From: Nitrososphaerota archaeon | Lineage (GTDB): Archaea; Thermoproteota; Nitrososphaeria; Nitrososphaerales; UBA57 | DNA length: 32,000 nt | NCBI GenBank assembly: GCA_016871995.1 | Contig: VHBL01000003.1 | Location: 1 to 32,000 of the forward strand | Reading direction: 5' to 3' | In this document: one piece after another, positions 267 to 25,800 of the stretch | Numbering within the stretch: the first letter of the stretch is position 1 | Layout of the letters: the number at the start of each line of letters is the position of its first letter | Program-made: the position numbers and the translations under genes | The notes under the pieces: generated by a model | Seen by the model: the letters and a program-made list of their open reading frames with translations, nothing else | What the model was told of the DNA's origin: nothing | Databases searched by the model: none

Positions 267-362
267 GGGTAGCGCAGCACTAAACAACAAAGGAAGTAAC
301 AGAACGAAGAGGAATAATTCCAATTTATCTGGCTATCTTTTGTAACGAAAAGTGTAAAAACA

Positions 363-1748: not shown

Positions 1749-1753
1749 AGCCT

Positions 1754-1767
1754 AAAGTATTAATACA
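1754..1767 (+). promoter_or_regulatory. TATA-like box (aaagtattaataca) for the rps24e-rps27ae pair; spacing fits a leaderless or short-leader mRNA
   Basis: AT-rich element centred ~31 nt upstream of the ATG at 1792. Confidence 0.3.
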
Positions 1768-1791
1768 GATGCGTGGTTTCGGTGCATCCTC

Positions 1792-2148
1792 ATGTCTGCA
1801 GAGCTACTACAAGAACAGGAGAATAAGTTCCTCTCAAGGCGAGAGGTTACTGCAAGGTTCACCGGGATCAAGGGTAACCTGAAGAGGAATGAAGCGGCTA
1901 ACTTGATTGCACAGCAGCTCAACATCGACAAGGCCAACGTATTTCCAATAAAGATAGAGTTTGAAGCTGGAAGAGATTCTGCTAAAGGTACCTTCTATGT
2001 TTACAGCGACATTGAACTTGCAAATAAGCATCTTCCAAAATTTCTTATGATCAGATCACTTTCAAAGGAAGAGAGGAAGAAGGCTAGGGAAGAGATGAGG
2101 AAGCCCAAACAAGCAGCACCAGCAGCTGCTACTGCAGAGAAGAAGTAG
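1792..2148 (+). CDS. rps24e: 30S ribosomal protein S24e
   Basis: ENKFLSRREV...GTFYVYSD...A..H.PKFL is characteristic of S24e. The gene sits immediately upstream of S27ae, the conserved archaeal pair. Confidence 0.9.
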   Translation: MSAELLQEQENKFLSRREVTARFTGIKGNLKRNEAANLIAQQLNIDKANVFPIKIEFEAGRDSAKGTFYVYSDIELANKHLPKFLMIRSLSKEERKKAREEMRKPKQAAPAAATAEKK

Positions 2149-2158
2149 GTTTCTATAA

Positions 2159-2422
2159 ATGTCAAAAGCACCAGCACCTCCACCACCAGCTCCAGCAGCC
2201 CCAGCGCCAGAAGCTGTAGCACCGCCTCCTGCTCCGAGAGGGAAGAAGAAGAAAAAGCCGAAGGTCAGCCCTCAAATGTACAAGTTCTACAAGGTTCAGG
2301 GAGACTCGCTAAAGAGGCTAAAGCAGGAATGCCCCAGATGTGGCAAGGGAAGATTTCTTGCAGAACACAAAAACAGACTATCATGCGGAAACTGCAGCTA
2401 CACTTCGTTTAAGAAGTCTTAG
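2159..2422 (+). CDS. rps27ae: 30S ribosomal protein S27ae with a ~36-aa Pro/Ala-rich plus poly-Lys N-terminal extension
   Basis: The C-terminal 50 aa, [38 protein letters not shown], form the S27ae C4 zinc ribbon. The start could alternatively be the internal ATG at 2276. Confidence 0.85.
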
Positions 2423-2548
2423 TTTCTTGCATCAACTTGCTAGAGTTTGCATTTTTGTCTGAATATTTTAGACGTGAAATTAACTTCATCCTTTGAGTCT
2501 ATCTACAAAACGGAAAAATTTTTGACAAATGATACGTTTTGTTAGTAA

Positions 2549-2571
2549 CTTCTACCAGCCCTTGGTAGAAG
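2549..2571 (-). terminator. Hairpin 3 nt downstream of the purA stop, followed on the minus strand by T-rich tracts
   Basis: cttctacca-gccct-tggtagaag forms a perfect 9-bp stem. An overlapping alternative 7-bp stem is agccctt/aagggct. The region lies between convergent genes. Confidence 0.35.
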
Positions 2572-2574
2572 GGC

Positions 2575-3570
2575 TCATCTTCTATCTATCGTGCTGTTAA
2601 CCTCCACACCAGTACCTATCAGGACGACTGGAATGCCAACCTCCCCTTCTACCTTGTCAACAAATTTCTTTGCCCTGCTAGACAGTTTAGAATGCTCAGT
2701 TATGCTTGCAGTTTCGGGAAACAGTACATCGAACTTTGTTATTGCGATACCAGTAGCACTGTTTAGCATAGCAGCCCTCTTGGCAAGTTTCATGCTGAAG
2801 GGAGCTGCTCTCCTTAACCTCCCCGTCACAGTTCCGTATTCTTCCCAGCCCCTCTTCTGCACCTCTTCAGCAGGCAGTTCGCCGTCAAGCTCTCCAGCCC
2901 CGACTCTGGTAACATAAGATTTGCAGACCATTATCACGTCGTCAACCTTCTTGGGCCCAATACCGACATCAGAGCAGATCGCAGACGCGGTCACATCTTT
3001 AGAAGTCACATAGGGATAAGTTCCGTGATAGAGCGAAAGAAAGGTTCCCTGCGTCCCTTCAATGATCAATTTCTTCCCTCGATCTACAACATCATTGACA
3101 TATTGGGCAACATCCCCAACCAAGTTCTTCAGTTTAGGTTCGTCCCTAGCTATCTTGGCGACTCTAAGCACTCTGTCAGAGTTTGCAGGTCCAGTACCTG
3201 TCCCCGTAGTTCCTATCTTCTCCTTTAGGTGCCCAACTTTATCAGCGGCCAGATGCTTCTCCTCAATGATAGAAGCTCCAGAGTCAATAAGGACTCGAGA
3301 TTTTGCATCATACCTGCTAGCCTCGTCGAGCAGAACGTCTGGGTTTACAAGCACTCCAGCTCCGACCATCAGCTTCGCTCTTGACACTATAGCGCTGGGA
3401 AGCATCCTAAGCTTGTACGTCTTTCCTTTATGGACGACCGTATGGCCTGCATTGGGCCCTACACCTCCTCTTACAGCTGTATCTACCTTATCCTTCAAGG
3501 CGAGATACGCAACTATCTTGCCCTTTCCCTCGTCTCCGAAGAATCCTCCAACAATAACGCACGTGGGCAA
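2575..3570 (-). CDS. purA: Adenylosuccinate synthetase, short archaeal type (331 aa)
   Basis: GGFFGDEGKGKIVAYL (GDEGKGK P-loop), GPNAGHTV, GTTGTGTGPA and TKFDVL motifs. Confidence 0.93.
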   Translation of the reverse strand: MPTCVIVGGFFGDEGKGKIVAYLALKDKVDTAVRGGVGPNAGHTVVHKGKTYKLRMLPSAIVSRAKLMVGAGVLVNPDVLLDEASRYDAKSRVLIDSGASIIEEKHLAADKVGHLKEKIGTTGTGTGPANSDRVLRVAKIARDEPKLKNLVGDVAQYVNDVVDRGKKLIIEGTQGTFLSLYHGTYPYVTSKDVTASAICSDVGIGPKKVDDVIMVCKSYVTRVGAGELDGELPAEEVQKRGWEEYGTVTGRLRRAAPFSMKLAKRAAMLNSATGIAITKFDVLFPETASITEHSKLSSRAKKFVDKVEGEVGIPVVLIGTGVEVNSTIDRR

Positions 3571-3612
3571 AAGCTAATCCGCAAAACTCCAGCATTTTAG
3601 CCTATTTATCGC

Positions 3613-4545
3613 TTGAGGCGATCGTTCAGAAGAAACCATGCAGATTTAAATCCTCCCTGCCACTTTCTGATTCAAGTGGCAAGGCAAATCTTCCCCAAGG
3701 CTGTAGGTAGCGTAGCCATAGCATGCTCCTTTATAGTGCTGTTCTACCTATTGCTGAATTTGCAAGTCGCTGCTTCGGGCCAGCAAGGTGACCAGTCTAA
3801 CTCTAACTCCAACCCAAGGGTAGGAGGAGGTGTCTCACAGCAGGCACTCTTGCAGTTAGCAGTCAGAGTAACCCTCATTTCAGATGAGGCCCCATATCTG
3901 AGAGTTCTTTCTGGGTTGCCAGTCCAAGTGTCTTGGCAGAGTCTAAACCCCAATAGTCAGAAGATGGAAACATTCTCTGTTGCAGGTACTACTGACGATA
4001 GAGGGAGGGCAATCTTCAGAATATCTCCAGGTAACTATTCACTGCAGGTTACTTGGAATAACATCAAGGGAAACAGATCTATATACGTTGACCCATCACA
4101 AAGGATTCACCAAGTAGACTGGAACATACAGAGCAAGACGATTTCATCTTACACGCTAGAGTTCAAGGATTCGCGAGGAGATGGGAGGGTTCTAGCAGGG
4201 GAGAGGGTAAGACTTTCATACAAAAGTGATGCTTTGATCAAAAACCCTGCACTTGTAGAAATGCGCATTGATAATCCAAACGCACCGAGAATTGCAGGGA
4301 GTAGACCTTCACAGAAGGTTTCAAGTCTGGCGGTATTAGGAATAACCATTGCGGGAGACCAATCATTGCTTGAGCTGACTCCTATCGACCCGCTGGTGGC
4401 ATTTGATTTAGATCCAGCCGCACTGCCCAGAGCGGCGGTTTACAGTATTAGCGTTGAAGGTCAACCTGTAATTCCAATTAGGGAAACTGTGATACCTGCT
4501 GCAAAGCCCAAAGTAGTTGCAGCACAGGCTGAGGAACTCCCATGA
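3613..4545 (+). CDS. Exported/membrane-anchored beta-rich protein; first gene of the MoxR operon (start uncertain, GTG at 3676 gives a cleaner signal anchor)
   Basis: Hydrophobic segment VGSVAIACSFIVLFYLLLNLQVAASG, then a beta-sandwich-like segment TTDDRGRAIFRISPGNYSLQV (CarboxypepD_reg-like pattern). The stop overlaps the next start (ATGA 4542-4545). Confidence 0.6.
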   Translation: MRRSFRRNHADLNPPCHFLIQVARQIFPKAVGSVAIACSFIVLFYLLLNLQVAASGQQGDQSNSNSNPRVGGGVSQQALLQLAVRVTLISDEAPYLRVLSGLPVQVSWQSLNPNSQKMETFSVAGTTDDRGRAIFRISPGNYSLQVTWNNIKGNRSIYVDPSQRIHQVDWNIQSKTISSYTLEFKDSRGDGRVLAGERVRLSYKSDALIKNPALVEMRIDNPNAPRIAGSRPSQKVSSLAVLGITIAGDQSLLELTPIDPLVAFDLDPAALPRAAVYSISVEGQPVIPIRETVIPAAKPKVVAAQAEELP

Positions 4546-5045
4546 TAGTGAATCCCTTTACCGGTTCTCCGTTATTACAGACATTGCTAGGCCTAATTAT
4601 CTTTCTTGCAGCGTTTAGTGTTATTGGGCTGGTCTTACCGTTGTTTAGGGGGAGGGGCTATGAAGATAATGGAGTCAGTGGCACATTGGGCAAAGGTTAT
4701 CAATACTTTTACGGCACAAAAGAAACACTAGAGAAGCTCAAAAATTTCAAAGAAGCCGGAGAGTTTTCTGAGGGCGCCATCCTAGGCTACAAAGCCTTGA
4801 GAAATTTGTTGCCCAAAGTTAACCTGCTCTCCGAAAACAAGGCAAATACTGAACTTGACATAATAAGCGAAATGATCAGGACGTCGCCAGAGCTGCGAGG
4901 TATTGCCCAGCCGATACTGCAATCATATACATACTACGAGAGGGCAAGGTTCTCCAAGCCGTTAACATCTGAAGAGCTTGATGACGCAATTACAGCCTTT
5001 GACAGAGTGTATTCACACTCTACCATAAAGCGGAAGAGGGGCTAG
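4542..5045 (+). CDS. DUF4129-like membrane protein
   Basis: N-terminal TM helix (LLQTLLGLIIFLAAFSVIGLVLPLF). The C-terminal YTYYERARFSKPLTSEELDDAITAF resembles the DUF4129 signature found next to MoxR/DUF58 genes. Confidence 0.6.
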   Translation: MIVNPFTGSPLLQTLLGLIIFLAAFSVIGLVLPLFRGRGYEDNGVSGTLGKGYQYFYGTKETLEKLKNFKEAGEFSEGAILGYKALRNLLPKVNLLSENKANTELDIISEMIRTSPELRGIAQPILQSYTYYERARFSKPLTSEELDDAITAFDRVYSHSTIKRKRG

Positions 5046-5417
5046 TTGGTAAATTATCTCTTTTTCACAATACTGGGGATAGCCGTGATAACAGCCCTTT
5101 ACACAAGGCGGCTGCTTAAGAAAATGACAATTCCCAATCAGGAGGGATACGTATATGAAAAAAGCGAATCTGCGAAAGGTTTGGCAAAACTAGGCGCAAA
5201 GATTCCAGACTATTCTGGTGCTGTAATTATCATTAGAGAGGAGGCCAAAGCCCAGCTACCGAGGCACAGCGCCTTCGATGCACAGCATATAGCACTAAAT
5301 TCTCTTATCGCAAACTGCACAGCGGTTCTGAACAAGGGTCGTGCCACTAAGGAAAAGTTCGTGGAGCTCCAAGGTACACTTCTTAAGATAAATACAAGTC
5401 ATGAAGTAGAGTTGTAA
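5046..5417 (+). CDS. Small single-TM protein of unknown function (TTG start)
   Basis: N-terminal helix YLFFTILGIAVITALY followed by RRLLKK. Packed between operon genes with 0- and 1-nt gaps. Confidence 0.5.
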   Translation: MVNYLFFTILGIAVITALYTRRLLKKMTIPNQEGYVYEKSESAKGLAKLGAKIPDYSGAVIIIREEAKAQLPRHSAFDAQHIALNSLIANCTAVLNKGRATKEKFVELQGTLLKINTSHEVEL

Positions 5418-5418
5418 C

Positions 5419-6390
5419 ATGGCAGACCTTCTTGCGGCCAAAATTTACGAAAAACTGCAGAATGAGATGTCAAAAGTCATAGTAGGCAAGACGGATGTTG
5501 TTAGACTTCTGACCATAGCTCTGATTTCAGATGGACATGTGCTTCTTGAGGGAGTACCAGGAGTCGCAAAAACACTTATCGCAAAATCGTTCTCAAAGTG
5601 CCTTGGACTTGAATTTAGGAGAATCCAGCTCACACCAGATATGCTCCCAGCCGACATTACTGGGACATTTACCTACAATGTTAGAGATCAGGTATTCGTC
5701 TTCAGAGAAGGCCCCGTGTTCTCTAATGTTGTACTTGCTGATGAAATCAACAGAGCGATTCCCAAGACTCAATCAGCTCTACTTGAGGCGATGCAGGAGA
5801 AACAGGTTACTGTTGAAGGAGTGACAAAGAAGCTCCCCGACCCGTTTATTGTTTTAGCAACACAAAACCCTGTTGAGATGCATGGAACCTATCCTCTACC
5901 GGAAGCACAGTTAGATAGGTTCATGTTCAGGCTCATCATAGCAACTCCAGAAGCGGATGATGAGATCGAAATACTGCGAAAGTCTTCAACTGTAGATGCC
6001 GAAGACTTGCAGAATGTTGTTGGGGTAAGAGACATCATAGAAGCCAGAGAAAACACACGGAAGGAGGTTACTGTGTCGAAAGAAGTGCTGAACTATATAG
6101 TTTCTTTGGTCGGGGCGACAAGAAGGGATGCGGAAAGAGTAATGCTTGGTGCGAGCCCGCGAGCATCAGTACAATTGTTGGCAGCATCAAAGGCACTTGC
6201 AGCACTTAGCGGAAGGAAATATGTCACTCCAGACGATGTCAAGAAGTTAGTATTCCCAGCTTTGAACCACAGAATACTCCTTAATCCAGAATATGTGCTA
6301 AGGACTGCCAATGTTGGTCGCCCGTATGACTACGATGCTCTCAATACTATAATCTCGAGTGCGTTGTCAATAGTAGAGCCACCCAGATGA
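5419..6390 (+). CDS. MoxR-family AAA+ ATPase
   Basis: Walker A GVPGVAKT, Walker B VLADEINRA, then PKTQSALLEAMQE and ATQNP, typical of MoxR/RavA-type ATPases. Confidence 0.93.
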   Translation: MADLLAAKIYEKLQNEMSKVIVGKTDVVRLLTIALISDGHVLLEGVPGVAKTLIAKSFSKCLGLEFRRIQLTPDMLPADITGTFTYNVRDQVFVFREGPVFSNVVLADEINRAIPKTQSALLEAMQEKQVTVEGVTKKLPDPFIVLATQNPVEMHGTYPLPEAQLDRFMFRLIIATPEADDEIEILRKSSTVDAEDLQNVVGVRDIIEARENTRKEVTVSKEVLNYIVSLVGATRRDAERVMLGASPRASVQLLAASKALAALSGRKYVTPDDVKKLVFPALNHRILLNPEYVLRTANVGRPYDYDALNTIISSALSIVEPPR

Positions 6391-6395
6391 TTTAG

Positions 6396-7697
6396 TTGCT
6401 TACAAAAAGAGGTATAGCCTTCCTTAACTCAACGTTCGCTCTGGTAGTAATAGCAAGTTTTGGCTTCGATCCACTGTTCACGCCTATATCGCTGATAATG
6501 CTGACGGTGCTCGGCGTAGAAACTATGCTTTATGCAAAGAGCCTTAGAGCTCTTCGATTGACAACCGCAACCAGAAAGCTCTCCGCCGAAAGCGCCTTCG
6601 TTGGAGATACTATTTCTGTAGATCTTGAGATAGAAAACAAGAGCAGGGGATCTTTGGGGCCAATAGTCGTAATAGATCAGATGCCACGAGGTTTCAAGAC
6701 AGCCGCATCTACACAGGATTGGATTCTTTCCATTGATGGCCGCTCCAACCAGCTGATTTACTACGAAATAGAACCATTGCAGATAGGAGACTGGAAATTT
6801 ACAGGCGTTGAGATCACCTTAACTGATAGATTTGGAATATTCAAAACAGTAAAGAGTATTCCTTGCGAATCTCGCATCAAGGTCTACCCAGACATGAGAA
6901 AAGGTGAGGAACTCTTGAAAGGGAGAATTCATTTGGGCATAAGGCCGATAAGACGTTCAGCGATTTCGACTCCACATGGTTCTGAATTTAGCGGAATCAG
7001 AGAATATTACCCCAGTGATGATGTTAGGATGATAGCATGGAAGGCGATGGCAAAATCCGCGATTCAGGAACCAAAGACGAAACAACACGAAAACGAGCAG
7101 GCCATAAACACAATTCTTGTGATATGCAATTCAGAAACTTCGGGAGAGGGTAATGTAGGTAGCAGGAAACTTGACAAGATAGTAGAAACTGCGATAATTT
7201 TCTCTTATCTCGCTTTGAAAACCGGAGGAATGTTCCATGTGGTCTTCTCCCGCGATGGTAAGGTAGAGCGAGTTTCAGGGAGACCTCTTGAAATGGCAAC
7301 TAAGCTCTACAACATAGAACCCGATCCGAAGGCCGATATTGCTGCTTTAATACGCTATGCATCAAAGATAACGCAGTCACGCTCGCTGTTGCTAACAACG
7401 GTAGATTCTCCGTATCCACACAAAATCAATAGTTCCTTCTTTAAGGGTGCAATGATTTCGAATCACTTCTTGCACATCTTGCTTCTTGACACTGCAAGTT
7501 TCTTCCCCATAGAGAGCCCTGATAAAGTCCTTACGATGGCCAGGAACGTTCTTGCTTCAAGGGAACTTGGACACTTAAGGCGGTTACTTTCAGAGTTGTC
7601 AGAGGAAGGAATAACAGGACAGCTCTGTGGTAAAGACGACCTTATGGCCAAGGCAATGGAAGTATTCTCAAACGCAGGAGTGATTATAGAAACTTGA
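6396..7697 (+). CDS. DUF58 (degenerate VWA-like) protein, the usual MoxR partner
   Basis: Two N-terminal TM helices and the DUF58 signature FSGIREYYPSDDVRMIAWKAMAK. TTG start. Confidence 0.88.
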   Translation: MLTKRGIAFLNSTFALVVIASFGFDPLFTPISLIMLTVLGVETMLYAKSLRALRLTTATRKLSAESAFVGDTISVDLEIENKSRGSLGPIVVIDQMPRGFKTAASTQDWILSIDGRSNQLIYYEIEPLQIGDWKFTGVEITLTDRFGIFKTVKSIPCESRIKVYPDMRKGEELLKGRIHLGIRPIRRSAISTPHGSEFSGIREYYPSDDVRMIAWKAMAKSAIQEPKTKQHENEQAINTILVICNSETSGEGNVGSRKLDKIVETAIIFSYLALKTGGMFHVVFSRDGKVERVSGRPLEMATKLYNIEPDPKADIAALIRYASKITQSRSLLLTTVDSPYPHKINSSFFKGAMISNHFLHILLLDTASFFPIESPDKVLTMARNVLASRELGHLRRLLSELSEEGITGQLCGKDDLMAKAMEVFSNAGVIIET

Positions 7698-8662
7698 AGT
7701 TTAGTCTAGTTTTAATCGGGCTATTTGCTGCGATGGCTCTGCCGTATCTTTCGCTTATAATCGTCTCTAATTACTTCTCATACATCTGGCTAGTAGTAAG
7801 GACATTAGGCGAAGTCAAACTTCACTCTATATCAGCACTGATGGCACTGGCATCCGTGGCAGCATACACATTTCGAATTTCAAGGGGTTCTGGTGCAGTT
7901 CAGGATTCTTCAATAATAGCAACATTAACTGTGCCAGTCGTGCTACCGTCTTTGCTCATGGTTGGCTTGTTATTGACTCCTATGCAGGAACAACTTCCCG
8001 CATATTTTTCATCTGCTGCTGATTTGTACTTGGTAGGAATTGCGAGTCTATCAATAGTCCTTCCACTTTTATCCATCATCAACCAAGCATCAATAATGTT
8101 TCTGAACAAGGGAAGTGCTGCAAGTGCCGTACTTATGACGATGATTAACTACGGCTTGATTGCTTTCGTAGGTGTAGTAGGTTCCGAACCACTACCACCA
8201 GAGGGACCAAGCAAGGGCTTGCAGGTTATGGGTGCAAGGATACTTGTGGACTTTTACGCCTTCATGCAATTTCTGATTTCAAGTTTACTAGGCTTAGAGC
8301 AAATAACCAGTTCTCCTTTGGGGAGCGTACCTTGGCTGGCCTCTCCAGACAGGATATTAAATGCGACAATCTTCGCCATAGCATCTGCAGTGTATTTCTA
8401 TTATAGACTGTATCAGAAGAGGGCTGAAGAGGAAGGAGCCCTGACTCTTGTAAAAAGCGGGGGGCCAATGGCAGTAAGCCTGCATAGTATAGGATTCGCG
8501 ATCTTTGCTGCTGTGCTTATAGACGCAGGATTAATATTGGCAATTTTGCTTACTGTGCAGCAATTGCAGCTGGCAGTAGAGCTGTCGATAGTGTTGATGA
8601 TGGCGATGATAATGATACTCGGGTTTGCGGATAGGCTGATGCCAAGGTGGTTTAGGGGATGA
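7694..8662 (+). CDS. Polytopic integral membrane protein (about 8-9 TM)
   Basis: Hydrophobic throughout. The start overlaps the DUF58 stop (TTGA) and the stop overlaps the next start (ATGA). No transglutaminase Cys-His-Asp motif seen. Confidence 0.65.
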   Translation: MKFSLVLIGLFAAMALPYLSLIIVSNYFSYIWLVVRTLGEVKLHSISALMALASVAAYTFRISRGSGAVQDSSIIATLTVPVVLPSLLMVGLLLTPMQEQLPAYFSSAADLYLVGIASLSIVLPLLSIINQASIMFLNKGSAASAVLMTMINYGLIAFVGVVGSEPLPPEGPSKGLQVMGARILVDFYAFMQFLISSLLGLEQITSSPLGSVPWLASPDRILNATIFAIASAVYFYYRLYQKRAEEEGALTLVKSGGPMAVSLHSIGFAIFAAVLIDAGLILAILLTVQQLQLAVELSIVLMMAMIMILGFADRLMPRWFRG

Positions 8663-10362
8663 AGAAAGCATTATTAATATTGGCGCTCTTGCTAATTCCT
8701 CTACTTCCTCTCCAATTGGCTGAAGGTGCCAACCCACCTTTCAAGTTCAAAGTTGGGTACTCTGCTGAGAAGATGTTCGATGCTACCACAGGCGTTCCTG
8801 TTTTTATCGCGGGAGAGACCATTTGGATTTATCCCGGAGAGCCGATAATAGTAAGCATTTCCAGGCCAGATGGGCGACCTGCAGCCGCTGTACCATTGGG
8901 TGAGCATCCATACCCCCTGTACACTTTCAAGGACACAGATATACTTGGGACATGGCTTTTAAGAATAGAATCCAGAGCCGGGCAATTCACCTTTCCAGTA
9001 GAATTTGTTCAGCAGTCCATAAAGCCTGATGGACACGAAGCAAAGTTCTCACTAGAAGAAGATTCGCTAGGAATAAAAGGCATAATTAGCTTCAGCCCAC
9101 CAGAAATTCCCTCATCAACGGAAGTCATACTTGTCAGAAAGAGCAGAAATGAGTCATTGGTAAATATTGCTACCAACGTAACGATAGGAGGTTCGCAGGT
9201 AGTTCTTCAGATAACCAAGGGAGAAGGAGCTGTTACTACATTGAGAGTCTCTCCTTATGCTCCCATAGGAGGAGTTGATTACGAGGCTGATGTTGCAAAT
9301 GGACCCGTGTTTACTACATGGGCCGACATAATCATGGAGATTCCTCTTACAAAGAGGACAGGTCGCTCGCTGATAGTAACCTACGTAGACGATGCGATAG
9401 CAAGAACTCCTAAGGTAGCTACACAGCTACCCGGTCAACCAGAGAATACTCTAGCTCTGAGAATCTCTCCAAGGGGAACAGCCGAAGATTCCGCAACGGT
9501 GCCTACAAAATATGGAAGGGCTACATTAAACGTATACATGCAACAGGGAGCTACGATAAATATCGTCAAGATTCCACTAGTGATACTACCGGGCAGGGTG
9601 GTCATACAACCTGCAGCGACATCTTCTGCAGCACCATTTGCACAACCTCTTCCATATGAATTCCTTGACCCTCTTGGCGACCTTTCTGCTTATGACATAA
9701 TATTGGCTACCAAGATAAACGGTCTTGACAATGTTTGGAGCACTAGTATAACTCCTCCTCTAGCTTCTCTTAAAGTTACAAACACTATAGGCGGAGAAGC
9801 AGTTTCTAACTATGACGTAAATTTCACATCTGGCGTTATTCAGAAGACAAAGGTTGGTGAGACAACATTCGTCCTACTACGGGAAAGAAGAGTTACAACA
9901 TCTTACAACCTTGCTATTGATGGAATTCTTCAAAAGGAAGGTGAATTCCAGCCTGCAACAGTAACGCTTTCACAGCTCTCGGAGGTTTCGGTATTTGCCA
10001 GCCAGGGAAAAGTCCAATTTACTATCATGGGAAGCTTAGGCATACCTGCACCAGCAGGCAACATCACAGTATACAAAGTAACGGGAAACTCGTTTGCCGT
10101 AGTAAAGGAACTCATCTGGCCTGGCGGGGGTTCTGTTAGTACAACTCTTCCCCAAGGAACTTACAGGGCCACCGCTAAAGTTCTGGAAATCCAGCAGTCT
10201 AAAGATTTTGAAGTCAAACAGCCCATCACTTCGGTAGACATCCAGATGCAAAACCTATTCACTAGAGATGAGTTTAACTTGGTTGGCGCCTCTTTGGTGA
10301 TAATGTCTTCAGAGATTGTGTTTGCGATACTGGTCTGGAGAAGAGCACTAAGGTCTAAGTAG
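8659..10362 (+). CDS. Large exported protein with signal peptide and a C-terminal TM anchor plus basic tail
   Basis: Signal MKKALLILALLLIPLLPLQLAEGA. Beta-rich body (TLPQGTYRATAKV). C-terminus is DEFNLVGASLVIMSSEIVFAILVWRRALRSK. Confidence 0.75.
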   Translation: MKKALLILALLLIPLLPLQLAEGANPPFKFKVGYSAEKMFDATTGVPVFIAGETIWIYPGEPIIVSISRPDGRPAAAVPLGEHPYPLYTFKDTDILGTWLLRIESRAGQFTFPVEFVQQSIKPDGHEAKFSLEEDSLGIKGIISFSPPEIPSSTEVILVRKSRNESLVNIATNVTIGGSQVVLQITKGEGAVTTLRVSPYAPIGGVDYEADVANGPVFTTWADIIMEIPLTKRTGRSLIVTYVDDAIARTPKVATQLPGQPENTLALRISPRGTAEDSATVPTKYGRATLNVYMQQGATINIVKIPLVILPGRVVIQPAATSSAAPFAQPLPYEFLDPLGDLSAYDIILATKINGLDNVWSTSITPPLASLKVTNTIGGEAVSNYDVNFTSGVIQKTKVGETTFVLLRERRVTTSYNLAIDGILQKEGEFQPATVTLSQLSEVSVFASQGKVQFTIMGSLGIPAPAGNITVYKVTGNSFAVVKELIWPGGGSVSTTLPQGTYRATAKVLEIQQSKDFEVKQPITSVDIQMQNLFTRDEFNLVGASLVIMSSEIVFAILVWRRALRSK

Positions 10363-19301: not shown

Positions 19302-19318
19302 ATTCATAATAACCTTTC
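19302..19318. repeat. Left copy of a perfect 17-bp direct repeat (attcataataacctttc) bounding the GC-rich island; candidate attL/target-site duplication
   Basis: Identical 17-mer at 25784-25800. Its reverse complement (ttattatgaat) supplies the TATA-like element ~10-25 nt upstream of the ino1 GTG. Confidence 0.7.
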
Positions 19319-19326: not shown

Positions 19327-19341
19327 AAACTTAATTGGGTC

Positions 19342-19365
19342 AGGTTGACTTGCCCAACCTACCCT
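19342..19365. repeat. Copy 1 of an imperfect 24-bp direct repeat (aggttgacttgcccaacctaccct)
   Basis: 22/24 identical to 19512-19535. Can fold as a ttggg/cccaa hairpin. Confidence 0.55.
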
Positions 19366-19511
19366 CCCCCATCTTTTTGACAACTTGGCGGGCCCGAAGG
19401 GTCTTGACCCAGAAAGTGAGTCAACTAGCCTATTGGAGGAGGGCGTCAGACCTCCTTCCCAATTTTAAGTCATCTTTTGATGAGTTGCGGTTGGTTTTAA
19501 CTCAATAGGCT

Positions 19512-19535
19512 AGGTTGACCTGCCCAGCCTACCCT
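19512..19535. repeat. Copy 2 of the imperfect 24-bp direct repeat (aggttgacctgcccagcctaccct)
   Basis: 170 bp from copy 1. Can fold as an aggct/agcct hairpin. An inverted partial copy, gtcaactagcct, lies at 19420-19431. Confidence 0.55.
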
Positions 19536-19658: not shown

Positions 19659-20201
19659 TTAATCATGGCTATGATGTGGCACGACGGGCATCTGGCAACA
19701 CCAAAACTCTCGCAGCGGGGCCTGCATTCTTGCCATAATATCGACTCCTCCTGCGTCGAATCCTACCGAATTATTTCCCTCTACAAGGAACAGCGAAATC
19801 TCACTTGAACGCTTGGGTCTTGAAATATCATCGGAGTGATCTAACACGGTGTACAGTTACTTCAATCCGTTCTTGAGCGAATTCCAGAGAGGCCAGAGTG
19901 GTAGGCATCTAGGGTCAACTCCGGGTGAGACAAGACCACCAATGTTGAGGAACATGACTAGATCGTCTTCGAGGACAGGATCGTGAAGCCCGTCGAGTAT
20001 CTTTCTGAAACTGATTTCTTTCTCCGCGTACTTACCGCTTGGTCCCCCAACCAAAAGCCCACGAAGGAGCGCTGTCCGGCGATCTACAACATGACAGATG
20101 TCATCTGGATGTGTGCCAGGATTGTCTAGCTGCACGAGGCGCCGCTGAAATGAAGCCCGACCGAAGTCCGCAGAATCGGCCATCAGTGGAGAAAGAGTCA
20201 T
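19659..20201 (-). pseudogene. Cyclase/kynurenine-formamidase-family gene (PF04199-like) interrupted by an in-frame TAA; probably decayed
   Basis: ORFs 20201-19857 and 19847-19659 share one frame and are separated only by a TAA (19859-19857) plus 3 codons. NPGTHPDDICH resembles the HxGTHxDxPxH metal motif, with the first His and the Pro lost. VGFDAGGVD resembles the distal G.D..S.D block. The N-terminal region is short. Confidence 0.45.
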
Positions 20202-20227
20202 TAGGTCTATCGAGCCACTCCGGGCTT

Positions 20228-21055
20228 GTGGACGACGGCGACCTGCGGGAGCTACTGACCAAGTTCGGACTCACCCTGTCCGAAGCGGATGTCTTCATCA
20301 CCCTCGCGCAGCTCAGGAAATCGGGAGGCGGATGGGTAAGCGGAGCCGAGCTGGCAGAGCTGGCCGGGAAGCCCCGCGTAAGGGTATACCAGATAATTCA
20401 GGCCTTGGTTGGGCTCGGCCTCGTCCAGGCCAGCTTCGGGAGGCCCAAGGAGTATTCGGCGGAGCCGCCCCAGGTCGCGATGAGGAAGCTGGTCGCGGCT
20501 CAGGAGAGTAAGCTCAACGAACTGGCCCACCTCGAACAGCCGGCCGTCGAGGAGCTCCTGAGGCTGCCTCCCCTGGAGGATGGTCAAGGGGCCGGGAGGA
20601 GGTCGAGGATGTCGTTCAACATCGTTCAAGGGATTCCGAACATCCAAACCGCGATAAAGAGCGTCCTCAGATGCGAGGGTGCCTCCGTCGTGGTCAACAG
20701 GCAGTCCGTCGACCAGCTTGTCCCGACGCTGGGGTACCTGAAGGATGGACCGAGGTCGTTACGGCTCCTCGTCACGGGCGGGGCGGCCATGCCCAAATAC
20801 GCGCGCAGGATAGGAAGGAAGGGCAGGCAAGTCGAGGTGAGGCGTCTCGCAGAGGAGATGCCGACGACGGTGCTCACGGAGATGACGTTCGTGCTCCTAC
20901 TCTACTCTGTCGAGAGCTACAGGCCGAAACCCCTATCTCGGCCAAGGGACAGGTCCACTGCCTCGTACTGCGTCTCGGTGTCGGACGATTCTTACCTGAA
21001 GCAGGCGGGGTGCCTCTTCCAGTCGCTCTGGCGCTCAGCCGGGGGAGCATCTTAA
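20228..21055 (+). CDS. TrmB-family transcriptional regulator (wHTH plus C-terminal domain); GTG 20228 proposed as start, ATG 20150 possible
   Basis: LLTKFGLTLSEADVFITLAQL...SGAELAELAGKPRVRVYQIIQALVGLGLVQASFGRPKEYSAEPP, followed by the coiled segment LVAAQESKLNEL, is the TrmB N-terminal pattern. The 5' part of track ORF 20039 overlaps the divergent gene. Confidence 0.8.
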   Translation: MDDGDLRELLTKFGLTLSEADVFITLAQLRKSGGGWVSGAELAELAGKPRVRVYQIIQALVGLGLVQASFGRPKEYSAEPPQVAMRKLVAAQESKLNELAHLEQPAVEELLRLPPLEDGQGAGRRSRMSFNIVQGIPNIQTAIKSVLRCEGASVVVNRQSVDQLVPTLGYLKDGPRSLRLLVTGGAAMPKYARRIGRKGRQVEVRRLAEEMPTTVLTEMTFVLLLYSVESYRPKPLSRPRDRSTASYCVSVSDDSYLKQAGCLFQSLWRSAGGAS

Positions 21056-21090
21056 AGGCAGGTGTGCCGAATACTGATGGAACTGAGCCC

Positions 21091-21783
21091 ATGCCCAAGC
21101 TTTATGGAGTATATCTCGACCTCTATCTGAGGGCCGTGTTGGACAAGGACAAGGCGGAGGCATTCTCCGTCATCAACGGCTTCCTCAAGATGAATTCAGA
21201 TCCGGCGAAGGCATTCGGGATGATTGCCGCCGCCCAGACGGAGGTGGGCGACCTCTGGGCTAGCAACGCGATCAGCGTGGGCGACGAGCATTTCGCGACC
21301 GAGGTTGCGCTGGAGGCGATAACGGTGATAGCGAGCCAGTTCAGGCCGGCGAGGAGGGACGGCGCAAGGACCGCTCTCGTCGTAGGAGGAGTCGAGGGCG
21401 AGTTCCACCACGTCGGGGCGAGGATGTTCGCCGCATCGCTGGAGATCGAGGGCTGGCGGGTGGACTTCCTGACGAATCTGTCGACGAAGCATCTCTTGGA
21501 TTACGCAAAGGGGCGCAAGGGGAAGATAGACCTGGTTTCGCTGGGAGTGAGCCTCAGGCTGAACCTGCCCGCGCTCGAAACGGCCCTCGCCGATCTCCGC
21601 AGGCTGCCTGAACTCAGGGAGACAGTGATAATCGTGGGAGGGAGCATCTTCAGGGACCCGAGGCTGAAGAGGCGCCTCATAAAAGCGAAGGGGCACGGCG
21701 CGCTGGCGAACTGCGTCTGCACGACACTCGACGAAGGCATGAAGGCTGCCATGCGCCTCACGGCAGGCAGGCTGGCAGTGTGA
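21091..21783 (+). CDS. Stand-alone cobalamin-binding protein (B12-binding_2 helical bundle plus Rossmann B12 domain), CarH/LitR-sensor-like but lacking a DNA-binding domain
   Basis: W56-x9-E66-H67 (DLWASNAISVGDEHF; tgg at 21256, gag-cat at 21286-21291). E104-F-H106-H-V-G109 (ExHxxG; His codon at 21406-21408). An S/L-rich segment about 41 residues later and IIVGGSIF. ATG 21091, or GTG 21064, lies 8-35 nt after the TrmB stop. Confidence 0.85.
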   Translation: MPKLYGVYLDLYLRAVLDKDKAEAFSVINGFLKMNSDPAKAFGMIAAAQTEVGDLWASNAISVGDEHFATEVALEAITVIASQFRPARRDGARTALVVGGVEGEFHHVGARMFAASLEIEGWRVDFLTNLSTKHLLDYAKGRKGKIDLVSLGVSLRLNLPALETALADLRRLPELRETVIIVGGSIFRDPRLKRRLIKAKGHGALANCVCTTLDEGMKAAMRLTAGRLAV

Positions 21784-21828
21784 TTCGGGAAGAAAAGGTA
21801 TTTGGTCTGGCCGGGAGCACGCCCATCC

Positions 21829-22309
21829 ATGCAGCAGCTGCCATACCTATTCGCGGAGGGCCTCGCCTTGGGCCTTCTGTCGACAGCGGTAATGACACTC
21901 TTCGAGCTGCCGGCCTGGAGGAGGTGGGGGTATACGGGGAGTCCTCGAGTGGCATGAGAACGAGGAGATCTGCGCGAAGCTTGGAGGGAGGGGAGGCGGG
22001 ACCAACTATGCGGGGGTCTTCGGGCTGCACTTCATCAACGGCGGAATAGCGGGAGGATCTTTCCCGGTTATCAGGCAGACCTTCCCGATATTCGGGTCCT
22101 TGCCGCTGCCTCATTACGGCCTCCTCTTCGGCGCCACCCTCTGGATTCTCAAGCTTCTTCCCATCCACAGGCCTATAACGGGTCTCAGCGTATGGAGGCA
22201 CCCTCTGGGACGCGGTCCCGCGCTGGTGAGCATCGCAGGACATTTGATCTATGACTTGACCATGGCCTTGCTCGGCACGCTCTTGTACTGGCCGAATGTT
22301 AGTTTGTAA
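21829..22309 (+). pseudogene. Small (~160 aa) 4-TM membrane protein split by a +1 frameshift at a G5 run
   Basis: Frame 1 reads MQQLPYLFAEGLALGLLSTAVMTLFELPAWRRWG... and stops at 21955-21957. Frame 2 is open from 21896 and continues ...GIRGVLEWHENEEICAKL...LPHYGLLFGATLWIL...WPNVSL* (end matches track ORF 22100-22309). Removing one G from ggggg (21926-21930) fuses them. Confidence 0.5.
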
Positions 22310-22363
22310 GTTTCTATGCGAAATTACAATCTGGTCATAAGGCGTGCGTTTCTTACCTTAGCC

Positions 22364-22810
22364 ATGCAAAAAACCATAACTAAAGACATCATCGACACCG
22401 CGGCGGACGCGGGGTCGTTCAAGACGCTGGTTGAGGCCTTGAAGGCAGCCAACCTCGTAGAGACACTGAAGGGGAGAGGCCCGTTCACCGTCTTCGCGCC
22501 GACTGACGAGGCATTCGCGAAGCTTCCGAAGGGAACGGTCGAGGGGCTCCTCAAAGACATACCGAAGCTGACGGCGATCCTGACCTATCATGTTCTGCAG
22601 AACAGGGTCTCAGCGAAGGAGGTTCTCGCCATGACCTCGGGAGGCAAGACTCCAGCGGTCGAGACGGTACAAGGGAGCACGGTTACCCTCCGGTCGAGGG
22701 GAATACTCTCAAAGATCGTGTACGTGAACGACGCGAAAGTCGTGAAACTTGATGTGGAGGCCAGCAACGGCATCATTCACGTCATAGACAATGTGATCCT
22801 GCCTCCTTAA
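22364..22810 (+). CDS. Fasciclin (FAS1) domain protein (track ORF starts at 22316; Met17 at 22364 is more likely)
   Basis: [48 protein letters not shown]...LTYHVL...[13 protein letters not shown] matches the FAS1 H1/YH/H2 blocks. No obvious signal peptide. Confidence 0.85.
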
Positions 22811-22967
22811 GGCAGGGGCCTTTTTTTCTTGGTGATGTTGCTTGGGACATACCGTCCCACGGGTCAAGAGCTCTTCTTTTTCTGGTCGGTGGCAGGAGAC
22901 CTGGAGCCGGGGTGGAGGTGCTCTGAATTATTTCTCGCTGGAAGGAATGCCAGACAGCAAGGATGGC

Positions 22968-24014
22968 ATGCATCTTATGAAGGCGCTAATCGCGGGCGTA
23001 GTCGCAAGTGTCGCCTTTGCGTCTGCATTTTCTCCTTTCGCCCTCGGCCATGCACCGCTAGGTGCGGGAGACAACGAGGCCCTTGGCGACGCCACCCTGA
23101 TTCCCAACGCTGAGAAGTCATGGGCAGTCTATGCAGAGCTTCACGAAGCAGGGGAGGCCCAGTACTACAAGTTCGACGTGACCTCGGGCCAGAGGCTCTA
23201 TCTGATGCTCTATGCCTCCCCTGGCGATGCAGACGCCGGTTTCCTTCCACACATGGCCTTGATGGCGCCGGGAATCGACGATGAAGGTTCGCTACCCAAA
23301 TATGTCATTCTGCCGGAAGGCTACGGGTACAGGACTGTTCCAAGCAAGCGGGCCGAGAAGCCGAGCTACGAGGCCTTCGCGCCGGGCAGCTTCTACTCCC
23401 TCTCCGAGTTGCGCTTCGAGGCGGGGCAGGGCGGGACGTATTATGTGGTCGTGTTCGAAGAGAAAATGGGAGGTCGCTACGGGCTGGCCGTAGGCGAGCA
23501 GGAATCATTTACGATTGAGGAATACCTACTCATTCCGTTCAGCACGCTGAATGTCTACCTTTGGTCGGGGCAGAGCCCAATACAAGTCATCGCCCCGATG
23601 GCCGCGGTAGTTGCAATAGGGATTGTGACGCTCTATCTAGCTCAAGTAAGGACAGCTGTCACCCGTTCTGCGGGATCCGCGCTTGCATATGTCGCAGGCC
23701 TGATATTCGTGGGGAGCGCGGCCGTGAAGATCTACGTTATGCTCGTCGCCCTCAGCTGGACCGGATTGGTAGGCGATGCCATGCTAACCGTGACATTCGT
23801 CTTGGCGCCGCTCGGGATAGGAGCGTATGCCATGAAGTACAGCCTCGGCGGCAGACATCGGAGCCAGAGGGTTAAGATGGTCATCTTCGCTCTCCTTGGG
23901 TTGATATCGTGGGGAGGTTTCCTCGTCGGTCCGGCCATAGCCGTCGCTGCCGCCATAACCCCGAGTTCGGGCGGCCAGCAGCGGACCTCACTGCATCGAG
24001 AGCAGTCAGGCTGA
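22968..24014 (+). CDS. Membrane protein: signal peptide, ~210-aa exported beta domain and ~5 C-terminal TM helices
   Basis: From Met43 of the track ORF: MHLMKALIAGVVASVAFASAFSPFALG|HAPLG..., then a PPC-like segment (AQYYKFDVTSGQRLYLMLY...GGTYYVVVFE..GGRYGLAVG), then hydrophobic helices to the end. Confidence 0.7.
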   Translation: MHLMKALIAGVVASVAFASAFSPFALGHAPLGAGDNEALGDATLIPNAEKSWAVYAELHEAGEAQYYKFDVTSGQRLYLMLYASPGDADAGFLPHMALMAPGIDDEGSLPKYVILPEGYGYRTVPSKRAEKPSYEAFAPGSFYSLSELRFEAGQGGTYYVVVFEEKMGGRYGLAVGEQESFTIEEYLLIPFSTLNVYLWSGQSPIQVIAPMAAVVAIGIVTLYLAQVRTAVTRSAGSALAYVAGLIFVGSAAVKIYVMLVALSWTGLVGDAMLTVTFVLAPLGIGAYAMKYSLGGRHRSQRVKMVIFALLGLISWGGFLVGPAIAVAAAITPSSGGQQRTSLHREQSG

Positions 24015-24055
24015 ATGCTCGGTGAAAGGAAGATGTTGCGGTCGCTGACATAAGC

Positions 24056-25345
24056 ATGAAAGGAATGACGACTATTCTGGTCACGGGGGCAAACGGCTTC
24101 GTAGGTCGGAGGCTAGTCACAAAGCTGCTCTCGGACGGCAAGTACAAGGTAAGGTGCCTGATCAGGCATCCTGACGTCGGTGCTGAGCTTGGAGATGTCG
24201 AAAGGGTCGTGGGGAACGCGAACGACTACGAGAGTCTCATGCGTGCTCTGACCGGCATCGATGTGGCATTCTACCTGATTCATTCTATGGAGGGCTCATC
24301 ATCAAATTGGGAGCGGTTCGAAGAACGAGACCGAACGATGGCGCGGAACTTCGCGAAAGCCTCGACGAGCTGCGGGGTCAAGAGGATCATCTATCTCGGT
24401 GGCCTTGCATCAGGAGACGAATCGGCTCTCTCGAGGCATATGAGGAGCCGGCGGGAAGTGGGAGAGATCCTTCGGACTTCAGCCGCCGCCGTGACTATCT
24501 TTCGCGCGGCGGTGATATTGGGGGGAGGAAGCGCTTCATTCGAGATGATGTCCCAGCTTGTCGAAAGGCTGCCGTTCATGGTACTCCCGAGGTGGGTAAC
24601 GAGCAAACTCCAGCCAATCGCGATAGAGGACGTCGTGACCTATCTAGCGGAGTCGGTAGGAAACGAGCTGACATCCGGTAGGGATTTTGACATCGGCGGT
24701 CCAGACATTTTAACATACCGTCAGATGATGGAGCGCTACGCGAGCAGGACCCACAAGAGGTTCCGCCCACTGATGCTTCCGTTCCTGACGCTCAACCTCT
24801 CATCCTACTGGGTCGACCTGGTCACGGACGTCAACGCGTCACTTGCAAGGCCGTTGGTGGAGAGCCTCAGCAAGGACGCGGTGGTAGCAGATGATTCGAT
24901 AAAGCGCGTAATGCCCTTCAGGCTCGCATCCTACGAGGAATCAATAGACGCCGCCCTGCGCGAAAGGAAGCCGAGGGAGAACTCCAGAAAGTCGAGGGAC
25001 ATCACTCCGCTCTTGCTCGTCCTGGCCGCCTTGGGCTTGACGACGCTCGTAGCCGGTTCGCTTCCTGAACTGCTCGGTTCACTGTGGACCGGGCTGGTAT
25101 TGCTTTGGCTCGTCGGCATTGGATATTCGCTCTTCTTCTTGCGTTTCGGAGCCCGGATGGGAGCACTTTCGGCTGGAGTCGTCGCCTGGCTCGCGCTAGC
25201 TTTCTGGATGCTCGACGCGGCGGTGGCGGTTCAGATGGCCGTTTCAGAATCAGGTTCGGCCATCGCGAGGGACATCGTCGGAATCGTCCTGGCAGCGGCA
25301 ACTGTGCTTCTGTCCCACTTTAGCTTTCATGAGAGAAGGGAGTGA
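24056..25345 (+). CDS. NAD(P)-binding atypical SDR/NmrA-like domain fused to a ~4-TM C-terminal domain
   Basis: ILVTGANGFVGRRLVTKLL (GxxGxxG Rossmann) plus an epimerase-like body. The last ~110 aa are hydrophobic (LLLVLAALGLTTLVAG..., VLLWLVGIGYSLFFL...). Confidence 0.85.
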   Translation: MKGMTTILVTGANGFVGRRLVTKLLSDGKYKVRCLIRHPDVGAELGDVERVVGNANDYESLMRALTGIDVAFYLIHSMEGSSSNWERFEERDRTMARNFAKASTSCGVKRIIYLGGLASGDESALSRHMRSRREVGEILRTSAAAVTIFRAAVILGGGSASFEMMSQLVERLPFMVLPRWVTSKLQPIAIEDVVTYLAESVGNELTSGRDFDIGGPDILTYRQMMERYASRTHKRFRPLMLPFLTLNLSSYWVDLVTDVNASLARPLVESLSKDAVVADDSIKRVMPFRLASYEESIDAALRERKPRENSRKSRDITPLLLVLAALGLTTLVAGSLPELLGSLWTGLVLLWLVGIGYSLFFLRFGARMGALSAGVVAWLALAFWMLDAAVAVQMAVSESGSAIARDIVGIVLAAATVLLSHFSFHERRE

Positions 25346-25510
25346 GGTCTTGCCATGGGCGGGTTGCCGGGGTTCGGTCAGGGTGCGAAATCCTGTATCT
25401 GTCGAGCACAGAGTTGTTGACTGATCGGAAGAATAGTTGGCTACTGCAAACCTCGTCCCGACGTCTGAAAGGGCACCTGTTATAGCCGTCTGGGAGATTC
25501 AAGATGGCCA

Positions 25511-25699
25511 TTAAAACGGAGCGAAGATTCCCACGAAGGCAATATAGGGGAGCATCGTCTTGGCAACGATGCTGAGGATGATGTAATATCTCTTGACGTA
25601 CAGATAATCCCTCCGGCGGCCGACTCCCCCGTCTTGCAGTACCGTGTTCACAGCGAATTTGTTGAAGAGGACCAAGTAATCGATAAAGTCCTCGAGGGG
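25511..25699 (-). pseudogene. Possible 3' remnant of a truncated membrane-protein gene in the island's right arm
   Basis: My translation of an open frame with no plausible start: PLEDFIDYLVLFNKFAVNTVLQDGGVGRRRDYLYVKRYYIILSIVAKTMLPYIAFVGIFAPF*. It is preceded directly by a TAA. It looks more protein-like than the 129-aa track ORF in the same region. Confidence 0.25.
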
Positions 25700-25783: not shown

Positions 25784-25800
25784 ATTCATAATAACCTTTC
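25784..25800. repeat. Right copy of the perfect 17-bp direct repeat (attcataataacctttc); candidate attR
   Basis: Identical to 19302-19318. cataataa lies ~25-33 nt upstream of the ATG at 25820, and ggaggg lies 3 nt upstream of it. Confidence 0.7.

Follow-up and report, generated by a model that had tools for sequence, protein, structure and literature searches.

A TrmB-family regulator and a stand-alone cobalamin-binding protein as a strong candidate two-protein light switch of soil and peat archaea

Introduction

Can a cobalamin-based light sensor encoded by one archaeal gene control a DNA-binding protein encoded by its neighbor? The question is raised by a 32,000-nt stretch of DNA from a Nitrososphaerota archaeon (assembly GCA_016871995.1, contig VHBL01000003.1, positions 1 to 32,000; hereafter the window, in whose positions all coordinates are given unless a locus is named). 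Here trmB (20228-21055, plus strand), encoding a TrmB-family regulator of 275 aa, is followed by cbd (21091-21783, plus strand), encoding a stand-alone cobalamin-binding sensor protein (CBD) of 230 aa. In the literature searched, cobalamin photoreceptors have been characterized in bacteria only and are almost always single-chain MerR fusions. Judged by the comparisons below, the trmB-cbd pair is a strong candidate for a two-protein light switch of soil and peat archaea.

The cobalamin-binding protein

CBD comprises a four-helix bundle and a Rossmann domain, as indicated by Pfam (PF02607 and PF02310) and by an AlphaFold2 (AF2) model. The match to PF02607 (B12-binding_2) lies above the cutoff (E 9.4e-10), and the helical bundle begins at residue 2 of the model (predicted local distance difference test, pLDDT, 85.8), leaving only the sensor module and no DNA-binding domain. 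The protein carries the motifs G53-D-L-W56-x9-E66-H67 and G103-E-F-H106-H-V-G, followed by VSL and GG184 blocks. A family profile of nine archaeal members (A1) was aligned by hhalign with the cobalamin-binding domain of Thermus thermophilus CarH (TtCarH; the query was the sequence of PDB 3whp/5c8d except for one residue in the DNA-binding domain), giving a probability of 95.9% and an E-value of 5.7e-9. In this alignment W56, E66, H67, and H106 fall on TtCarH W131, E141, H142, and H177, and G103-E-F-H106-H-V-G stands opposite G-E-R-H177-E-I-G. The initial annotation of this DNA, made from the letters alone, had described a sensor-only protein of 230 aa with a Wx9EH signature and a lower-ligand motif EFHHVG followed by S/L and GG blocks; both descriptions are borne out, with the first motif in the CarH columns and the proposed lower ligand on H177. 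GxxW, W-x9-EH, and GE[FY]H are invariant among the 35 archaeal homologues examined, wherever the region is covered.

Among solved structures, those closest to CBD by sequence are the photocobilins 8j2y/8j2w/8j2x (E 2e-14 to 3e-13), followed by CtMerR (8jbs, 1e-9), with corrinoid proteins next. Searching PDB with the A1 profile made the ranking sharper, with photocobilins 8j2w/8j2x at 1.5e-27, CtMerR 8jbs at 1e-20, MttC and other corrinoid proteins at ~1e-12, and MetH, AppA, and TtCarH at E ~1e-3 (TtCarH up to about 3e-3). The CBD model superimposes best on the dark-state photocobilin (8j2w) and the CtMerR domain (8jbs), with TM scores of 0.77-0.78, compared with 0.57-0.68 for TtCarH. Photocobilins and CtMerR bind adenosylcobalamin (AdoCbl) and respond to light (PMC11796333, PMC10979010). 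By sequence and by model, the nearest solved relatives of CBD are light-responsive AdoCbl domains, not methyl-transfer corrinoid proteins.

In a large protein database, the homologues of CBD form a small stand-alone family at 30-40% identity, and its 49 close representatives (182-261 aa) contain PF02607 and PF02310 alone. Public annotations name these homologues either 'methanogenic corrinoid protein MtbC1' (JGI) or 'MerR family light-induced regulator'. Bacterial relatives with a DEHFAT motif are fused to MerR or HTH_17 domains, to a PAS-histidine kinase, or to an uncharacterized N-terminal domain. The archaeal family also has an invariant N-terminal YLxAVLDKD and an extended DEHFAT block, neither of which belongs to the published CarH signature.

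The TrmB-family regulator

The protein encoded at 20228-21055 matches the TrmB winged helix-turn-helix (wHTH) family PF01978 well above the cutoff (E 2.5e-11, 43.7 bits vs cutoff 25.6), as the initial annotation had proposed, and retains the Tyr of the TrmB recognition helix as Y54. Of two public gene calls, one starts trmB at GTG 20228 (275 aa) and the other at ATG 20150 (301 aa); the former is the start from which homologues align. The AF2 model (pLDDT 84) consists of an N-terminal wHTH, a coiled-coil helix of ~30 residues (residues 81-112), and an alpha/beta C-terminal domain. In Foldseek searches, this model matched TrmBL2 (5bpd) over its full length (E 1.4e-14) and TrmB (3qph; E 1e-9), while the fold matches of the C-terminal domain were the N-subdomain of the TrmB effector-binding domain (2f5t) and PLD/Nuc/Zucchini folds. 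As modeled, the architecture is TrmBL2-like, with a wHTH, a coiled-coil dimerization helix, and a PLD-like domain. The sugar-binding effector subdomain PF11495 has no Pfam match in the protein, and matches to the NCBIfam TrmB/TrmBL1 models cover the N-terminal 90-110 residues only, at 15-25 bits against cutoffs of 500-650. Without a ligand-binding subdomain, the regulator shows no evident means of sensing a small molecule by itself.

When 1.84 billion representatives were searched exhaustively with phmmer, only 10 proteins reached E<1e-30 and only 13 reached E<1e-10; beyond these, the matches drop steeply to those covering the N-terminal wHTH alone. The members of this tiny subfamily are 109-303 aa long, and the shortest seem to be fragments.

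Conservation of the pair across archaea

The trmB stop codon (21053-21055) and the cbd ATG (21091) are separated by a 35-nt gap containing no T-run, the upper end of the 8-35 nt spacing first suggested. The pair was found in ~36 archaeal loci, and every named genome among them belongs to Nitrososphaerota; the five GTDB genomes that carry it are from Nitrososphaera sp., Conexivisphaerales, and Nitrososphaerales. Searching from the sensor, a full-length TrmB homologue (33-38% identity) lies 0-1.3 kb away in all archaeal loci with enough flanking sequence. Searching from TrmB, a metagenome scan yielded 26 loci, and the sensor gene stands beside TrmB in 25 of the 25 with room for it. The sole apparent exception is locus L006, whose contig ends 1.16 kb past the sensor gene; in the closely related L008 and L009, HTH_45 and receiver-domain genes come first and TrmB follows 1.3 kb downstream of the sensor. 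The recurrence of a TrmB plus B12-module neighborhood, which had been put forward as a check, is thus seen from either query with no exception.

The order of the two genes is flexible. TrmB precedes CBD in the window and in L037, L031, and L033 (4-nt overlap or 6-8 nt gap in the latter three), CBD precedes TrmB with a 4-nt overlap in L003, and the two are divergent in L010, L024, and L047. Both subfamilies are small with sharp bounds. This pattern is as expected of obligate functional partners, although it does not prove physical contact.

The complete layout in the two Nitrososphaera sp. metagenome-assembled genomes (MAGs; L008 1200-4050 and L009 5560-8712) is ABM monooxygenase / CBD / operator / HTH_45 wHTH - receiver - TrmB, which suggests extra regulatory layers in that lineage.

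A palindromic operator at the fasciclin promoter

The genes around the pair also recur. Most commonly, a fasciclin gene on the minus strand faces an MMPL-TrmB-CBD operon on the plus strand, whereas in a second layout (L031/L033/L037) a minus-strand MMPL gene faces TrmB-CBD-fasciclin(-SDR); the window resembles the latter but lacks MMPL. The core module is fasciclin / MMPL-TrmB-CBD, sometimes with heliorhodopsin.

Comparing the intergenic regions of these loci revealed a palindromic motif with 14 specified positions, TGTAAnTT-N8-AAnTTACA. Its single match in the window, the 24-bp candidate operator TGTAAGTTTCTATGCGAAATTACA at 22305-22328, has 0 mismatches; downstream of it come a TATA-like TCATAAGG, after 6 nt, and the fasciclin ATG (22364), after 35 nt. 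Wherever a related locus has kept the fasciclin or MMPL promoter, the palindrome is present with <=2 mismatches, and 20 sites with <=1 mismatch were counted in 270 kb of archaeal loci, against ~0.04 expected. In the divergent layout it sits exactly between two TATA-like boxes (ATAAAAG ... CTTTAAT), whereas at plus-strand fasciclin genes it lies 5-8 nt upstream of the TATA-like box, with the ATG ~22 nt after that box, a distance that implies leaderless mRNAs. In addition, L031/L033/L037 contain a second palindrome in the MMPL/TrmB intergenic region, and the regulator operon is therefore probably autoregulated there; the window lacks this site. In L010/L024 the palindrome precedes an MFS-heliorhodopsin operon. 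The suggestion that the fasciclin and membrane genes form the regulon of the pair, at first a guess from their position, is strengthened by the conserved palindrome before fasciclin.

We infer from these comparisons that TrmB is the protein that binds the palindrome, because it is the only DNA-binding protein common to all loci. In the TrmB family, a site upstream of the B recognition element (BRE) and TATA box is associated with activation and a downstream site with repression (PMC4158304). By analogy, the site upstream of TATA would fit activation; however, it abuts and probably overlaps the BRE, and repression by occlusion is equally possible.

Proposed mechanism and alternative explanations

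The domain architecture of both proteins, the motif columns of the sensor, the strict co-occurrence of the genes, and the conserved operator at a fixed promoter position are established. The explanation that we favor, and consider somewhat probable, is a two-protein light-responsive transcription switch, a split CarH in which an AdoCbl sensor controls a dedicated TrmB at the palindrome by protein contact. CBD would bind AdoCbl, with H106 as the lower ligand and W56, E66, and H67 forming the adenosyl pocket, and would act as the photosensor. TrmB would be the DNA-binding half, recognizing the palindrome that abuts the TATA/BRE of fasciclin, and in most relatives the same site would also serve the divergent MMPL-trmB-cbd operon. 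Photolysis of the Co-C bond would change the shape or oligomeric state of the sensor and thereby alter its contact with TrmB, probably via the ligand-less, PLD-like C-terminal domain. The predicted outcome is switched expression of fasciclin and MMPL and, in some lineages, of heliorhodopsin, MFS, and SDR genes. Cofactor binding, light response, sensor-regulator contact, and the sign of regulation are what we infer from sequence in this scheme. The link to light is suggested by the heliorhodopsin in the module, by the fusion of bacterial relatives of the sensor domain to MerR/HTH_17 or to a histidine kinase, and by analogy with the light induction of fasciclin and MmpL genes elsewhere.

A bolder version, which we put forward tentatively and regard as somewhat doubtful in its full extent, is that the pair represents the first archaeal B12 photoreceptor system: a hetero-oligomeric split CarH whose sensor, free of the GxxxP dimer contact, docks on the C-terminal domain of TrmB, with light switching a bidirectional promoter through the 24-bp operator and so a regulon of envelope genes (fasciclin, MMPL) joined in some lineages by heliorhodopsin.

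Several observations weigh against a light switch of this kind. The match of CBD to PF02310 (B12-binding; E 2.5e-7, 31.0 bits) falls slightly under the cutoff of 32.1. The published light-response signature consists of GxxW, EH, GxxH, and GxxxP (SignatureFinder; PMC11796333), and the last element is absent from CBD, which has TNLST where TtCarH has GPDTP; canonical GxxxP is kept in 4 of the 35 archaeal homologues and absent at the canonical position in the other 31. In CtMerR, the Pro of this motif packs on the adenosyl group of the neighboring monomer (PMC11796333). TtCarH H132, which takes part in the bis-His light state, corresponds to A57 in CBD according to hhalign, but this position is variable in CtMerR and the photocobilins too and is not universal (PMC11796333). 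The adenosyl pocket and axial ligand are conserved at the sequence level, whereas the element for the head-to-tail dimer contact of CtMerR is not; we speculate that the loss of GxxxP and the missing ligand domain of TrmB are compatible with a changed quaternary partner. Further points concern the genes. No TrmB-CBD fusion occurs among 76 sensor-family matches or ~250 TrmB matches, so direct contact has no Rosetta-stone support, and the HTH_45 and receiver genes between sensor and TrmB in L008/L009 make other partners possible. Carotenoid and photolyase genes, the classical CarH/LitR targets, are present in none of the loci, and no promoter for trmB-cbd was identified in the window.

The points on contact would suit two co-regulated neighbors that never meet, with TrmB autoregulating alone and CBD being cargo that acts on another target such as MMPL, heliorhodopsin, or a membrane protein, or that serves as a photoprotective cobalamin carrier. 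Direct interaction is backed by genomic linkage alone, and the sensor gene is usually the last of the MMPL-TrmB-CBD operon. However, the pair persists when the rest changes (the window, L003, and L010 have no MMPL), its gene order is inverted or divergent in several lineages, TrmB and CBD are equally narrow in distribution, and the ligand-less C-terminal domain of TrmB calls for a signal input from elsewhere, which makes this explanation unlikely. A second possibility leaves the contact intact but changes the signal, such that CBD reports corrinoid status to TrmB and light has no physiological role. Any AdoCbl-binding domain also reports cofactor availability, CarH requires AdoCbl for DNA binding (PMC4557120), the soil and peat inhabited by these organisms receive little light, and a TrmB of Halobacterium has been linked to cobalamin biosynthesis genes (PMC4158304). 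We nevertheless consider sensing of the cobalamin supply rather improbable: the ~36 loci contain no genes for cobalamin biosynthesis, salvage, or transport or for B12-dependent enzymes, an Rfam scan of the window found no cobalamin riboswitch or any other family, the fasciclin, MMPL, and heliorhodopsin cargo points to light and the envelope, and the closest relatives of CBD are photoreceptor domains.

The same relatives bear on whether CBD is a methyl-carrier corrinoid protein of the MtaC/MtbC/MttC type, which shares the two-domain fold and would agree with the weak NCBIfam pyl_corrinoid and MtbC matches and with the JGI name of the homologues. Those matches score 24-28 bits against cutoffs of 215-350, the methyltransferase corrinoid families taken together give 16-27.5 bits against cutoffs of 215-370, photoreceptor domains are 15 orders of magnitude better than corrinoid proteins in the profile search, the W-x9-EH motif of the adenosyl pocket is invariant, and no locus contains a cognate methyltransferase gene, all of which renders this identity extremely improbable. 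Finally, the module may be an import in decay that has ceased to act as a switch in this genome, even if it still does so elsewhere, which is compatible with the other readings. Erosion in the window also counts against a working switch here: MMPL and the upstream operator are gone, heliorhodopsin is cut to a remnant of 55 codons, a neighboring membrane-protein gene is frameshifted, and the native promoter was probably not imported. On the other hand, the trmB, cbd, fasciclin, membrane-protein, and SDR open reading frames (ORFs) are intact at full length, the invariant residues of the family are kept, the fasciclin operator is a perfect match, and the same sequence was assembled from several samples; a loss of the switch in this genome appears quite improbable.

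Relation to known systems and significance

As the initial annotation had said of such a pair, the literature searched contains no account of TrmB coupled to a cobalamin sensor; it contains none of a B12 photoreceptor from archaea either, and broad surveys of light-responsive cobalamin-binding domains make no mention of TrmB (PMC11796333, PMC8717448). The nearest logic is indeed, as had been pointed out, that of AerR-CrtJ in Rhodobacter capsulatus and PpaA-PpsR in R. sphaeroides, in which a small cobalamin protein without a DNA-binding domain, a stand-alone photoreceptor, is combined with a separate transcription factor. AerR uses cobalamin as chromophore and interacts directly with CrtJ (PMC6199135, PMC9144470). 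In contrast to that system, the partner here is an archaeal wHTH protein of the TrmB/TrmBL2 type and not a PAS-HTH protein such as CrtJ/PpsR, the promoters are archaeal TBP/TFB promoters, the sensor keeps a full CarH-type adenosyl pocket and is closest to photocobilin and CtMerR domains, and the candidate regulon consists of fasciclin, MMPL, and heliorhodopsin genes rather than photosystem genes. A stand-alone cobalamin photoreceptor acting on a separate factor is therefore known, whereas the pairing with TrmB, the operator, and the candidate regulon are new.

CarH/LitR proteins (T. thermophilus, Myxococcus xanthus) and CtMerR share with CBD the four-helix bundle and Rossmann domain (fold TM scores of 0.64-0.78), the equivalents of W131/E141/H142/H177, GxxW, and GxxH, but CBD lacks the MerR domain, with DNA binding supplied by a separate gene, has no H132, and belongs to a family in which GxxxP is mostly absent; direct sequence similarity of this family to TtCarH is weak. 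Photocobilins (SasPcob 8j2w, AbDPcob 8j2y), which give the best sequence and structure matches, possess an extra C-terminal biliverdin-binding (photoglobin-type) domain and in some cases a GGDEF output, whereas the archaeal protein ends after the Rossmann domain. On the regulator side, TrmB, TrmBL1-Tgr, TrmBL2, and Halobacterium VNG1451C have in common with the window protein the PF01978 wHTH, the coiled-coil helix, the PLD-like domain, and palindromic operators. It differs from the sugar-sensing TrmB/TrmBL1 in lacking the sugar-binding subdomain, with length and fold as in TrmBL2, and from the known family as a whole in that its predicted input is a partner protein, not a sugar, and its C-terminal half is peculiar to the tiny subfamily. 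Its presumptive operator is also unlike the TrmB-family Thermococcales glycolytic motif (TATCAC-N5-GTGATA) and TACT-N7-8-GAGTA.

A conserved sensor-TrmB pair with a defined operator and a small regulon offers a tractable case of archaeal light-regulated transcription outside haloarchaeal systems. Nitrososphaerota include ammonia oxidizers, whose light sensitivity is ecologically important. If the proposal is true, the phylum would gain a transcriptional light response, and heliorhodopsin, a protein of debated function, would be tied to a light-sensor module and placed in a light-controlled regulon. Fasciclin and MMPL would likewise be linked to light in a third domain-level context. A two-component switch that responds to green light and works on eukaryote-like TBP/TFB promoters could also be of use in optogenetics.

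Cargo of the module and neighboring genes

The conserved candidate target is a fasciclin-domain protein of 148 aa by the gene-caller start (22364-22810, plus strand; PF02469, E 6e-38), 51-71% identical to the fasciclin proteins beside the pair in other loci. A longer ORF from 22316 would start inside the operator, and the 22364 start fits the homologues better. Right after the stop codon, a GC hairpin with a run of seven T (22797-22827, plus strand) resembles a terminator. Downstream follow a membrane protein of ~350 aa whose N-terminal domain weakly resembles PPC and whose C-terminal part contains transmembrane helices (22947-24014, plus strand), 47% identical to the product of the gene following fasciclin in L003, and an NmrA/SDR-like NAD(P)-binding protein of 429 aa with a hydrophobic C-terminal region (24056-25345, plus strand; NAD_binding_10, E 7.9e-19). 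The latter is 46% identical over its full length to the product of the gene after fasciclin in L037 and 45% identical to that of an NAD-binding+DUF2867 gene in the planctomycete locus L020.

Between cbd and the operator lies the frameshifted membrane-protein gene (21829-22309, plus strand; ~160 aa), whose frame shifts near a G-run at ~21930. Two independent assemblies show the same frameshift. The gene matches no Pfam family, lacks a counterpart in related loci, and ends in a stop codon that overlaps the operator's first bases. The heliorhodopsin remnant (25511-25675, minus strand), found by tblastn, comprises the last 54-55 codons, keeps the SxxAK retinal-lysine motif, and has stops upstream; aligned with residues 221-275 of the L003 heliorhodopsin, it shows 56% identity (E 1e-14), and it lies in sequence of host-like GC content just beyond a GC-rich block. 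Intact heliorhodopsin genes are part of the module in L003 and L010/L024.

Genes for B12 metabolism or methyltransferases are absent near the pair in all ~36 loci, and photosynthesis genes are absent from every locus. Elsewhere, light induces fasciclin and MmpL genes in M. kansasii (PMC9861118), and an Azospirillum fasciclin protein is under the RpoE-ChrR photooxidative regulon, as cited in PMC10949492. Both cases resemble the present module in having fasciclin or MMPL-family genes as cargo of light or photooxidative-stress responses; however, their regulators are the MarR-type CrtR or sigma/anti-sigma pairs, as opposed to TrmB with a cobalamin-binding protein. Locus L020 (positions 1-7700 of the Planctomycetota MAG contig JAPKBO010000039.1) carries genes for a stand-alone B12-binding protein, an ECF sigma factor, and a PQQ beta-propeller protein, together with a double-fasciclin gene, a DUF523+DUF1722 gene, and the NAD-binding+DUF2867 gene. 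The locus resembles a bacterial version of this cargo placed under other regulators.

Genomic island and signs of insertion

The pair and its cargo lie between the genes for myo-inositol-1-phosphate synthase and inositol monophosphatase, in a block (~20050-25400, from trmB to the SDR gene) whose GC content is 56-62%, compared with 41-49% in the flanks. A RadA-type recombinase marks the host as archaeal-like. A 17-bp direct repeat, ATTCATAATAACCTTTC, occurs on the plus strand at 19302-19318, beside the myo-inositol-1-phosphate synthase gene, and at 25784-25800, 20 nt upstream of the inositol monophosphatase gene; it extends to ~40 nt at 75% identity and may have arisen by duplication of a target or attachment site, or of a piece of promoter. 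Both the GC contrast and the flanking repeats accord with the foreign island recognized at the outset. However, the repeats also enclose sequence of host-like GC content, with ~700 bp at the left end and ~400 bp, including the heliorhodopsin remnant, at the right end, so a single clean insertion is not established. Neither integrase nor tRNA genes were found in the window, the latter by a tRNA scan, hence there is no tRNA integration site. Because the start codon of trmB almost coincides with the beginning of the GC-rich block, the native promoter of the gene was probably not imported. The window TrmB and CBD are 30-38% identical to those of relatives, and the SDR and fasciclin proteins 46-71%; as far as the sequences indicate, there is no close donor among the sampled relatives of the island.

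Directly upstream of trmB, where relatives carry MMPL, are two ORFs of 62 and 114 aa (19659-20201, minus strand). They were considered as MMPL or integrase remnants, which was rejected on finding no Pfam match and no homology to any fetched locus, and are probably non-coding or decayed sequence. Further left, at 19338-19535, two direct repeats of 28 nt, GGTCAGGTTGACTTGCCCAACCTACCCT and a version with 4 mismatches to it, bound a stretch of ~170-200 nt. This element encloses an 11-bp inverted repeat and folds much better than shuffled sequence does (z -4.5 as DNA); it occurs nowhere else in the window and matches no Rfam family.

The sensor gene of L050 is directly followed by a gene for a phage-type integrase (8977-10164), close to where the 172-kb contig ends, which hints that the module can be mobile; in the same locus, a SOUL haem-binding gene adjoins fasciclin.

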